The notes under the pieces are model-generated. The model saw nothing but the letters and a program-made list of their open reading frames with translations. It had not been told where the DNA came from and did not search any database. Made by a program: the position numbers and the translations under genes. Shown in pieces: positions 57,341-64,000 of a DNA stretch of 64,000 bases. The number at the start of each line of letters is the position of its first letter. The stretch's first letter is position 1. The stretch lies in assembly GCF_009914755.1 (NCBI RefSeq), contig NC_060925.1, one strand, 5' to 3'. This DNA comes from the human T2T-CHM13v2.0 reference genome, Homo sapiens.

Positions 57341-57346
57341 TTTATT
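57341..57346 (-). terminator. Candidate AATAAA polyadenylation signal of the Ly6/uPAR-like pseudogene
   Basis: Minus-strand AATAAA about 500 nt after the TAG at 57842, followed by GU-rich TTTGTGCTGTGGATGTTT. Confidence 0.5.
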
Positions 57347-57841
57347 TGAATTCAGTGTCTAAGTCATGTGGACGATGAGGGGAAAGGGGATTGACTCAGA
57401 CCCTTAGGATCAAGGGGTGGGGTCACTGCAGGGAAGCAGAGGAACCCCAATTCCAGCCCTGCTCTAGTGTCAAAGCCTGGCGAGGAGGGTCTGGGCAAAG
57501 TAGATGGGGCTGTGTGCTTTTTATGATGAAGAAACTGTCCCTGCAGGATTTGGGGGTCCTCCCACTGGGTGGGGGTCAGGCAGGAGGTTTTCTGTTTTTC
57601 CAGACAAACCCTATCCTCTCCCTGAGATTAGGGCTGAGGGCCTGCCCCCTTGGGGGGTTCCATGGTCAGGCCTAGGCCCTAGAAGGGGAGAAGTGAGGAG
57701 CCTTAAGCCCAGAGCTGTGGGCTTGATAAAGGCCTTTTACTAAAGATGCAACTACAGGAATCAGAGCTGGAGGGGGACCTGAAGGCTTGTAGATCCTACA
57801 GGGTCTTCTTGACTGCTGCTCCCAGATTCTGCTGGGCCCAG

Positions 57842-60800: not shown

Positions 60801-61011
60801 GTCAGGAGTTCAAGGCCATAACCAGCTCAAAGGTCATAGGTCAAAGAAAGGTCATGCAGCAGTTAAGTGGAAGAGGTCATGAACTTAGGGAAAAGTAGGG
60901 GCAGTCCCAGGGTCCAGCAGTAGTCATGGTCCAGGAAAGGCCAGGATCCCTGGGCTGAGGACAGCTACCTCTGAGCAAAGCAGCTCTGTGGCTACCATTG
61001 GCCACATACAT
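57842..61011 (-). pseudogene. Unrecognised 7-coding-exon gene for a secreted/GPI-anchored protein with two Ly6/uPAR-like Cys-rich repeats; disabled. Exons: 60969-61011, 60673-60740, 60490-60588, 60077-60257, 58767-58846, 58493-58588, 57842-58105
   Basis: All junctions are phase-compatible (1,0,0,1,0,0) and have pyrimidine-rich AG acceptors. The product has a signal peptide, two repeats with matching Cys spacing and the same intron position (CE|L), and a hydrophobic C-terminus. In-frame TAG at 60511-60513; the exon-5 donor reads GGAAAT. Confidence 0.85.
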
Positions 61012-64000
61012 CTTCAACTGAGGTGCTGCAGGAGCCAGAGAGAGGGAAGGACCAGTTCTGGCCAGCTGAGGAAACCTACAAGCAAAATTTCCATTACTGT
61101 ACTATGCAGATGAATAAATTGAGGCTGGGGAACTAGGGTGGGGGTGGGTCAACCTTTAGGGAATGAGGTCTCAGGGGCTCAGCTTTCGCTTCCTGCAAGT
61201 CATACTGTCAGAGTGACACTGGGGCAGGCACAAAGGGGCCTGCATCCCAGTAACAGCCCCCCGAGACACATTTTGTCACTGGCATGGCAACAGCAGCATC
61301 CCAGCCTGAGGGGAGGCAGAACTGGAGCAGGTGCAGTGACAGGAAATACATACCCAGTGACTCTGATCTGGTCTCATTTGCTGCCAACGTCAGAAGGTGC
61401 CCGGGTGTGGGAAGGTGGGAGTCATGGGCTTCCTCAGAACCCAGGGCAGGAAAACCCTAGGCCACAGAGGGTCAAAAGTCCAGACTCACTTTGTCCAAGT
61501 GTTCTTCAGGATTCAGACCCCAGCCTGTCCCTAAATGAGTGCTGAGCCAAAGATAGGAGGTAGCTCTCAGACTTTGGGTTCCTGGATCCCAGACTCTGCC
61601 CCCTGCAACACTAAGGGGCCACACCTAGAAAGGTCTGCTAAGCCTGGGTTTAGGTTTTTCCATACAAGGTAGGAAACTGCTAGAGATGAGAGTGGGGCAT
61701 TATTCCTATCTTCTCGCCCAGCCCTGGAAGCTGAGCACAACCCAGACCCTACCATTCCCAATGCTAATGGGGCATCTGTTTCCCTGCCCTCATGGATGTA
61801 ATCCTCCATCAGCACTCAGACTTGTCTCTCAAGTGACAGCAGCCAGGGTGATGCGATACACAGGAGAGTGTGCAGCAAGGACTCCTGGGTTGGGCCCTTC
61901 TGATGGTGTCAGCCTCTCTGTTGCCCATCCGTCCCCCCCACCAACAAACACTACACTCAAGAAACAGTTCTCTTGCTGGGCATGGTGGCTCACACCTATA
62001 ATCCCAGTGACTCAGGAGGCTGGGGCAGGAGAACTGCTTCAGGCCAGAATTTCAAGACCAGCCTGGGCAAGATAGTGAGATTCCCTTCTCTACAAAAAAT
62101 TAGCTGGGCATGGAGGTGTGCATCTGTAGTCCTAGCTACTTGGGAGGCTGAGGTGGGGAGGTCACTTGAGCCTGAGAGTTGGGAGGCTGCAGTGAGCTAT
62201 GATCATGCCACTGCACTCTAGCCTGGGTAACAGTGAGACCTTGTTAAAAAAAAAGTTTTTGGGGCCGGGCACGGTGGCTCACACCTGTAATCTCAGCACT
62301 TTGAGAGGCCAAGGCAGGTGGATCATGAGGTCAGGAGTTCAAGGCCAGCCTGGCCCATATGGTGGAACCCCGTCTCTACCAAAAACATGAAAAAATTAGC
62401 CAGGTGTGGCAGCGCACACCTGTAGTCCCAACTACTCGGGAGGCTGAGGCAGGAGAATTGCTTGAACCCGGGAGGCAGAGGCTGCCCTGAGCCGAGATTA
62501 CACCACTGCACTCCAGCCTGGGCGACAGAGCGAGACTCCGTCTTACAAAAAAAAAAAAAAAGTGACAGAGCGAGACAGAGTCTCACTCTGTCGCCCAGGC
62601 TGGAGTGCAGTGGTGCGATCTCGGCTCACTGTAGCCTCTGCCTCCCGGGTTCAAGCAATTCTCCTGCCTCAGCCTCCCGGGTAGCTGGGACTACAGGTGC
62701 GTGCTGCCATGCCCGACTAATTTTTGTATTTTTAGTAGAGATGGGGTTTCACCATGTTGGCCAGAAAGGTCTTGATCTCCTGACCTCATGATCTGCCTGC
62801 CTTGGCCTCCCATAGTGTTTGGATGACAGGTGTGAGCCACCGTGCCTGGCCTCCCATAGTGTTTGGATTACAGGTGTGAGTCACCGCGCCCGGCCAAATG
62901 AAGTTTTTACACAGTCAGCCCCTCTCCAAGGGGACTTCGGTTTCCAAAGGCCAAAGGTTCAAAGGGCTCAAAGGTTCTACCCAGGTCCCTGAAGCTTTGT
63001 GAAGAGCCCAGGCTTCCCACAGAAGCCCCTTTCCTCCTCCTTACTTTGCACAGTTGAGGCTGGAGGGACATCTCAGGAATATGATGGGGCAGGTGGACAG
63101 ACACTGAGCAGAATCAGAAGGCTGGGCAAAGATAGATGGGTACCTCCTAGGCTGTATTAATCCAGGCTTCTTGTCCATCTCCTTTAGTCTGTGTGCCCCT
63201 CCATGGCTAGAGCATATTCTCAATATTCTCTGTGCCCCACCCTATCCCAGCTATAGACCTACCTGCACACTTGAAGGTGCAGAGGGCTGTGAGTGTGCAT
63301 GCACAAGGCAGGGAGGCTACAGCTGCCGCCCCTGGAAACTGGAAGCTGCCCTTTCTCCTCCCCTCCAATCACTTGTCACCTCTGGGAGTTGCCTCTCATG
63401 TTGCTGCCACCAGGGACACACAGGGACCACAGAAAAGAAGAAAGCATAGCTGCTGCCCAGACTGTAGTTGGAGGGAGAAAATAAAGCCGCTTGAGCAGAT
63501 CAAAAGACCGCTGTCCCAACATCCCACTGGGAGGTGCCTTATTTGTCTGGATCGGAAACCTGGCAGGTGGAGAGGGCTCTCAGAAGAGATCAGAGGGAGA
63601 GGAGACCAGTGTCCTCCCAGGGTGGACCTGTAATGGGAGGACTCTTCTGGATGAGGGTGGAGAGGGTCACAGGTTCATTCCCACCCTGAGAACTCTGAGC
63701 TGAGGCTGACAGTAGGACCTGAAGGATGAGGAGAAAGGTTGCTATCATCCCAAGGATTTTTTTTTTTTTTAATGCAGAGGGAGAGAAATATCTCACAACT
63801 TCACTTCCCCAACACATTGGTTACCTTTAGGGTGCTCCCTTCACAGAGCCCTCCAGCACAAGTTGACCCCAGGGAGGGAAATGGACAGAAAATGGAGAAG
63901 AAAGGGATACCTGGTTGAAGCCAGAGACAGATTTCTTCACTTTCATCTGAGAAGTAGAGAGTAAAGACTCCTCCTGGGAGGGCTCATTCCAGGTGCAGCC

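Follow-up and report, generated by a model that had tools for sequence, protein, structure and literature searches.

A probable unitary pseudogene beside INPP5B on human chromosome 1, derived from an uncharacterised surface protein with two predicted three-finger domains

What is the seven-exon pattern that lies on the minus strand of human chromosome 1 (1p34), between INPP5B and SF3A3? The locus falls within a stretch of 64,000 nucleotides from T2T-CHM13v2.0 (contig NC_060925.1), here called the window, whose positions are used throughout. The original prediction, made from the letters alone, took it for the gene of a glycosylphosphatidylinositol (GPI)-anchored surface protein with two Ly6/uPAR (LU)-like domains, apparently disabled recently. 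In our analysis it is highly probable that the locus is a real unitary pseudogene, likely lost recently, whose intact form encodes an uncharacterised surface protein with two predicted three-finger domains in tandem.

All seven exons could be located on the minus strand, with AG acceptors and pyrimidine tracts before exons 2-7 and intron phases of 1,0,0,1,0,0. The coding part of exon 1 (60969-61011) opens the predicted signal peptide with an ATG at 61011 that has the expected A at -3; it ends in phase 1 and aligns with the N-termini of mole and bat proteins. Exon 2 (60673-60740) supplies the hydrophobic core of this signal peptide, with a short spacer, and ends in phase 0. The first repeat is divided between exon 3 (60490-60588; 99 nt, phase 0-0), with Cys 1-5, and exon 4 (60077-60257), with Cys 6-12 and phase 1 at its end. 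Exon 5 (58761-58846; 86 nt) encodes the Pro/Thr-rich linker joining the repeats and ends in phase 0. The second repeat follows on exon 6 (58493-58588; 96 nt, phase 0-0), with Cys 1-5, and on the coding part of exon 7 (57842-58105), which holds Cys 6-12, an extra Cys at codon 194, a hydrophobic GPI-type tail and the natural TAG. A candidate polyadenylation signal, AATAAA (57341-57346), lies 496 nt past that stop, close to the predicted distance of about 500 nt. The single internal stop is an in-frame TAG in exon 3 (60513-60511, codon 63). With four exon junctions downstream, a full human transcript, if made, would encode a 62-residue stub and would likely be a target of nonsense-mediated decay.

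One exon boundary had to be redrawn; the other features listed in the original prediction were all found in the sequence. The exon-5 end first proposed, 58767, is followed by GG, not GT, and was discarded for want of a GT donor; the true GT lies 6 nt further, placing the exon end at 58761. The frame thus becomes 837 nt (278 codons) in place of 831 nt (276 codons), still with no frameshift, and the exon-5/6 junction now matches the gene model of the titi monkey Plecturocebus residue by residue, one substitution excepted.

Could such a pattern arise by chance? Comparison at the sequence level argues that it is the relic of a real gene, because exon 7 alone matches vertebrate proteins and the mole protein maps in frame onto human exons 2-7. 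Used alone as a query, exon 7 picked out 7 vertebrate proteins from 226 candidates, with E-values between 2e-32 and 9e-23. The 277-aa protein of the mole Talpa returned 23 proteins among 2311 candidates, a profile query 4 longer fused models among 7990, and a HMMER scan of 1.84 billion representatives 103 matches, 83 of them at E<=1e-10. Whole proteins with both repeats and the hydrophobic tail are present in Talpa, Rhinolophus, Desmodus and many birds, so that the vertebrate gene behind the locus is intact in these animals. Against 6 mole and bat proteins the human read-through shows 65-71% identity, and against 7 bird proteins 37-41%. The human sequence retains all 24 family cysteines and 56 of the 58 columns invariant in 13 orthologs, a test in which intact mammals miss 0-5.

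By our own Cys pattern, two 12-Cys repeats were recognized in 52 of the 126 proteins collected (a set that includes one chance translation), one repeat in 25 and none in 49, many of these last being fragments. A tree of 48 rows was built from the human sequence, an incomplete model from turtle and 46 of the two-repeat proteins; the remaining six were omitted because they nearly duplicated other bird sequences or, in the case of one model, contained an internal duplication. Mammals, birds and the turtle grouped together, with 30 other rows outside that may represent amphibian- and fish-grade orthologs. In one distant member (P0121, 283 aa) repeat 1 is present twice in almost the same sequence, which points to a recent internal duplication or to an error of assembly.

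Is the human copy the ortholog of these genes? The expected synteny beside INPP5B was seen in automated models that fuse neighbouring genes (turtle, pangolin, desman, titi and P0103), not in the whole-protein species themselves. The Chelonia model runs from the C-terminal domain of SF3A3 (to 584) through the ortholog to the PH domain of INPP5B (from 747), and the Manis model has the same order. The Galemys model is fused to SF3A3, the Plecturocebus model continues into the N-terminus of INPP5B, and P0103, deep in the outer clade of 30 rows, continues into the INPP5B PH domain. When mole and bird queries were run against the human genome this locus was the only significant match, and no functional paralog was found by that search, which scores best candidates only; weak candidates on contigs 2 and 21 were dismissed as they do not have the Cys pattern. 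Given the gene order and the sole significant match, the human copy is an ortholog without a visible paralog. Together with the in-frame stop and the intact orthologs of other species, this supports the claim of a unitary pseudogene.

When was the gene disabled? In the titi model exon 3 is read out of its frame, and codon 63 comes out as AAG or AGG, and not as a stop, in all back-translations. Therefore, the TAG likely arose after the New World monkey divergence, and the gene was likely lost on the Old World monkey/ape line. The weak human intron-5 donor (GTGTCT, 58755-58760) is possibly a second lesion: the junction AAT/GTGTCT departs from consensus at -1, +4 and +5, and a back-translated hippo gene model is compatible with, without forcing, a consensus donor and four more bases. 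The Cys at codon 194 is a 13th, unpaired one in repeat 2; among 63 aligned homologous rows Cys occurs there in none and Lys in 52. Unique changes in three-way comparisons number 24-27 on the human line, 28-29 on that of the mole and 29-34 on that of the bat, while tree branch lengths are 0.16 for human, 0.085 for mole and 0.17 for Rhinolophus, the last from the shared node. A crude neutral clock, with assumed and not measured rates, places the loss 7-10 million years (Myr) ago, with an upper bound of 21-32, if the TAG is counted and the donor is not; with the donor as a second hit the estimate is 10-15 Myr (interval 2-45). The predicted recent disabling is thus consistent with the 24 retained cysteines, the unshifted frame, the lack of excess human-lineage changes and the non-stop codon 63 of the titi.

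Under a different scenario the gene died early in primates and its sequence was kept as enhancer or promoter DNA of INPP5B. A RefSeq enhancer (57504-58177) does overlap exon 7, the titi model is confined to exons 3 (in the shifted frame), 5 and 6, as if the whole gene could not be built, the protein searches returned no whole primate ortholog, and the clock's upper bound reaches 30-45 Myr if the donor is counted. However, the enhancer spans only one of the seven exons, whereas all 837 nt are free of frameshifts with every family cysteine in place and no excess of changes on the human line; the probability of at most two events after 43 Myr of neutrality would be 0.0003-0.01 under assumed rates with the donor not counted. 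We regard an ancient death as very unlikely.

It might also be that the stop is skipped and a shorter human protein is still made, or that the stop is polymorphic. Two exon combinations are open to the natural stop: 1-2-6-7 (156 aa, with signal peptide, whole repeat 2 and GPI tail), a route that also bypasses the weak intron-5 donor, and 1-2-4-5-6-7 (245 aa). Skipping of exon 3 is eased by its phase 0-0, a Glossophaga model omits this exon, and human exon 7 is well preserved (74% identical to mole). Yet no RefSeq transcript is listed at the locus, the only complete repeat of such a protein would carry the 13th Cys, loss of exon 3 alone would leave a half-domain with 7 Cys, and a recent loss explains the good preservation equally well. 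A surviving human product or a polymorphic stop is accordingly improbable in our estimate, and a recently lost gene remains the preferred reading.

What kind of protein was lost? Each repeat has 12 conserved Cys, whose order is compatible with the LYPD6 pattern, and the first and last Cys span 73-84 residues in the human and mole repeats. Each lies on two exons (3+4 and 6+7) and is split at the same place, the inner intron falling one residue after Cys 5, within model strand 31-36; exon 4 is homologous to exon 7 (E 7e-4). As the phase-0 introns match, half-domains of the two repeats are recombinable, and in the P0003 (Galemys) and P0022 (Calonectris) models exon 3 is followed directly by exon 7 or exon 6. 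The linker between the domains is 33-41 residues long in mammals and birds. Birds and distant members have a Ser/Thr-rich, mucin-like tail at the N-terminus; in the human, mole and bat proteins it is almost missing, at 13 residues. By a crude hydrophobicity criterion, 45 of the 52 C-terminal tails qualify. Of the proposed architecture, the two Cys-rich repeats are thus established, while the signal peptide and GPI signal fit hydropathy and conservation and stand as predictions.

The three-finger fold is likewise predicted, for repeat 2 directly and for repeat 1 by way of homology and weaker models. The repeat 2 model has LYPD6 as its top Foldseek match, with 83 of 89 residues aligned, and also matches other LU structures; uPAR, C4.4A, TEX101 and CD177 are among the matches. 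LYPD5 was the first structure row in the Atlas, below the Atlas's own bar. An AlphaFold model of the full-length protein, made from 18 rows, was of low quality, with a predicted local distance difference test score (pLDDT) of 48, and its Foldseek list pointed to uPAR and C4.4A with none at E<=0.001. A sequence search of the PDB with two profiles gave only chance Cys-rich matches. By analogy with LYPD6, for which the disulfide pairs were taken from the available part of PMC7582953, each repeat would have six disulfides, including an extra pair in finger 3. The repeats could instead be an independent disulfide-rich beta fold that resembles the LU domain by convergence, in which case functional analogies with Ly6/uPAR proteins would be void. 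However, the structural neighbours in the Foldseek lists and among the Atlas models are all of one fold, the structural alignment to LYPD6 is nearly complete, the number and order of cysteines fit that protein, and the LU arrangement is reproduced by the signal peptide, the exon pair for each domain and the GPI tail. Convergence is thus very unlikely.

Does a shared fold make this a Ly6/uPAR protein in the strict sense? According to a review of the LU superfamily (PMC6600238, cited here and below for the parts of its text available), an LU domain has 60-90 residues, an Asn 'invariably' after the last Cys, and two exons, generally set between phase-1 introns and divided by an intron at the loop 2 tip; its ten core Cys pair as 1-5, 2-3, 4-6, 7-8 and 9-10. 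The length of the new repeats, their predicted three-finger beta fold and their spread over two exons agree with this definition. The terminal Asn was found in 0 of 52 first repeats (Leu in 46) and 0 of 52 second repeats (Leu in 48, Met in 4), and neither phase-1 flanks nor an intron at the tip of loop 2 were seen, the phases being 0/0/1 and 0/0. The Pfam LU families (UPAR_LY6, UPAR_LY6_2 and Toxin_TOLIP) gave no match for 4 exons, 6+5+10 proteins or 19 single domains, and a PF16975 search of the human genome gave no match at the pseudogene locus. The proposed LYPD kinship therefore stands for the predicted fold and the two exons per domain, and fails for the Cys-Asn terminus, the exon phases and the Pfam match. 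On predicted structure the protein resembles a GPI-anchored LU protein, and we place it in a divergent LU-fold family, not among the canonical members.

The comparison with individual LU proteins leads to the same placement. Among the closest known proteins are the six-disulfide LU proteins LYPD6, LYPD6B and LYPD1. LYPD6 is alike in its 12 Cys (six disulfides), a likeness of Cys count only. LYPD6 and LYPD6B have one domain with a Cys-Asn terminus and a Cys spacing of 2,8,8,6,18,5,4,10,2,0,4, whereas the new protein has two repeats without Cys-Asn and a spacing of 4,4,9,6,12,3,6,7,3,0,7; LYPD6 also has three exons (phases 1,1,0) with introns at other positions than in the pseudogene. Paralogy with LYPD6 was rejected on those intron positions and an hhalign probability of 0.14, not above shuffles. 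C4.4A/LYPD3, Haldisin/LYPD5, TEX101, CD177 and uPAR/PLAUR likewise have tandem LU-fold domains, an exon pair per domain and a GPI anchor. All human multi-LU proteins are placed at 19q13 by the review, and their first domain is without the 7-8 bond (PMC6600238). The new gene, in contrast, has a different locus, phase-0 exon pairs, the Pro/Thr linker and all 12 Cys in both repeats. Membership of the 19q13 group was rejected on its position between INPP5B and SF3A3 and on its complete first domain. GPIHBP1 and SP-10/ACRV1 combine an LU domain with a disordered N-terminal extension, which in SP-10 precedes the domain (PMC6600238); the new protein differs in having two domains and a mucin-like rather than an acidic tail.

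How widely was the gene lost? Orca, false killer whale, hippo and pangolin gene models have missing exons or cysteines, and four mammal-like open reading frames (P0048, P0106, P0109 and P0110) show frame shifts or Cys losses relative to the human exons; these lesions are read from gene models, with the DNA unchecked. Whales, hippo and pangolin are known for losses of skin genes, to which the present losses may be likened. The two whale models, and the set with a whale-type exon 4 (P0005, P0006 and P0086), have lost Cys 8 together with Cys 9 of repeat 1. As these form a predicted bonded pair (the extra finger-3 bond), their joint loss need not alone be disabling. Named rodent, carnivore, ruminant, horse and Old World primate proteins were not returned by the three protein searches that cover named sources, the sensitivity of which is too low to prove absence, and in such mammals a gene with narrow expression may simply be unannotated.

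What might the ancestral protein have done? It would be a GPI-anchored, likely cell-surface binding protein in which repeat 2 sits beside the membrane and repeat 1 is carried outward on an O-glycosylated Pro/Thr linker, with the mucin-like tail of birds and distant members extending beyond repeat 1. Its sheets and fingers would bind an extracellular partner, as LU domains generally do (PMC6600238). By analogy with C4.4A/LYPD3, an epithelial or mucosal surface is the leading candidate for its setting, at slightly under an even chance. It is put first because C4.4A and Haldisin, the closest two-domain GPI proteins, mark squamous epithelia (PMC6600238), because a mucin-like tail suits an exposed surface and because of the losses in whales, hippo and pangolin. 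A gamete role, as for TEX101, SP-10/ACRV1 or Bouncer, is rather unlikely. Two-LU GPI proteins do include TEX101, itself in the fold search lists, SP-10 shares the disordered extension, about 70% identity across placental orders suggests modest constraint, and the few mammalian gene models suggest narrow expression; but repeated mammalian loss would be less expected of a fertility gene, and the long tail better suits exposed epithelia. We give a similarly low chance to modulation in cis of a signalling receptor or channel, as LYPD6 acts on LRP6/Wnt or on nicotinic receptors. In its favour, LYPD6 is the top structural match and has the 12-Cys pattern in common, it enhances Wnt signalling through LRP6 (PMC6600238), and the new gene is apparently single-copy, its position held over a deep tree.

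Is the gene new? RefSeq has no gene at the locus, though an obscure annotation in GENCODE or HGNC may exist, and the orthologs already appear in databases as 'uncharacterized' or 'mucin-like' models, which agrees with the claim of an unannotated, uncharacterised gene. It is undescribed in the available text of the literature searched (including PMC6886504, PMC6600238, PMC7582953, PMC4839075, PMC12807706, PMC5518101 and PMC8686638), six ortholog LOC identifiers gave 0 papers, and two papers naming both INPP5B and SF3A3 are, in the parts available, unrelated to the pseudogene. The closest precedents are the unitary pseudogenes of Mudge et al. 2019 (PMC6886504, available in part), including an LU-domain pseudogene at chr1:248.7 Mb, which are likewise ancestral, disabled in primates and matched by an intact syntenic ortholog. 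The present locus is absent among the 44 rows of their Supplemental Data S3, and a search by gene name and position that covered part of their other supplements found no row for it. Mouse-based screens could miss the locus because no rodent ortholog was returned.

Several neighbouring features were also observed. Intron 4 of the pseudogene holds, at 59160-59820, two elements in opposite orientation, one with a 40-bp tandem duplication (59378-59457); we take them to be Alu-like, and they would be useful as primate dating markers. The RefSeq enhancer, which lies some 1.6-2.2 kb upstream of where INPP5B begins, overlaps the 3' untranslated region as well as exon 7. Intron 2 of INPP5B (selected transcript, minus strand) starts ATATCCTT at 55144-55133, presumably a minor-spliceosome (U12-type) donor, with an annotated 3' end of AG; the titi and pangolin models read through this donor. 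The INPP5B intron after the exon at 40814-40954 has a GC donor in place of GT (40813-40812, minus strand). At 1p34.3 a genome-wide association locus for colorectal cancer has been reported, with expression quantitative trait loci for SF3A3, INPP5B and FHL3 (PMC8686638, available in part).

A wider picture, which we hold only tentatively and think doubtful, is of an unrecognised, Pfam-invisible family of tandem three-finger receptors that has stayed a single gene next to INPP5B all the way from fish-grade vertebrates to bats. Its silencing would be confined to the ape or human line, apart from independent losses in whales, hippo and pangolin. In that case the stop in humans could be young enough to be human-specific or still segregating, or the one-domain GPI isoform of exons 1-2-6-7 could survive. 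With this locus, one more human gene loss comes to light that is recorded neither in RefSeq nor in the Data S3 list of Mudge et al. 2019, and as only one or two lesions are present, the loss should be datable from ape and monkey genomes. It also points to a divergent LU-fold family, missed by Pfam, with its own cysteine spacing and exon phases and a tandem outside 19q13. Because mammals seem to have lost the gene more than once while birds, turtles, moles and bats kept it, its distribution would provide a phylogenetic handle on function, which chicken or fish orthologs make testable.
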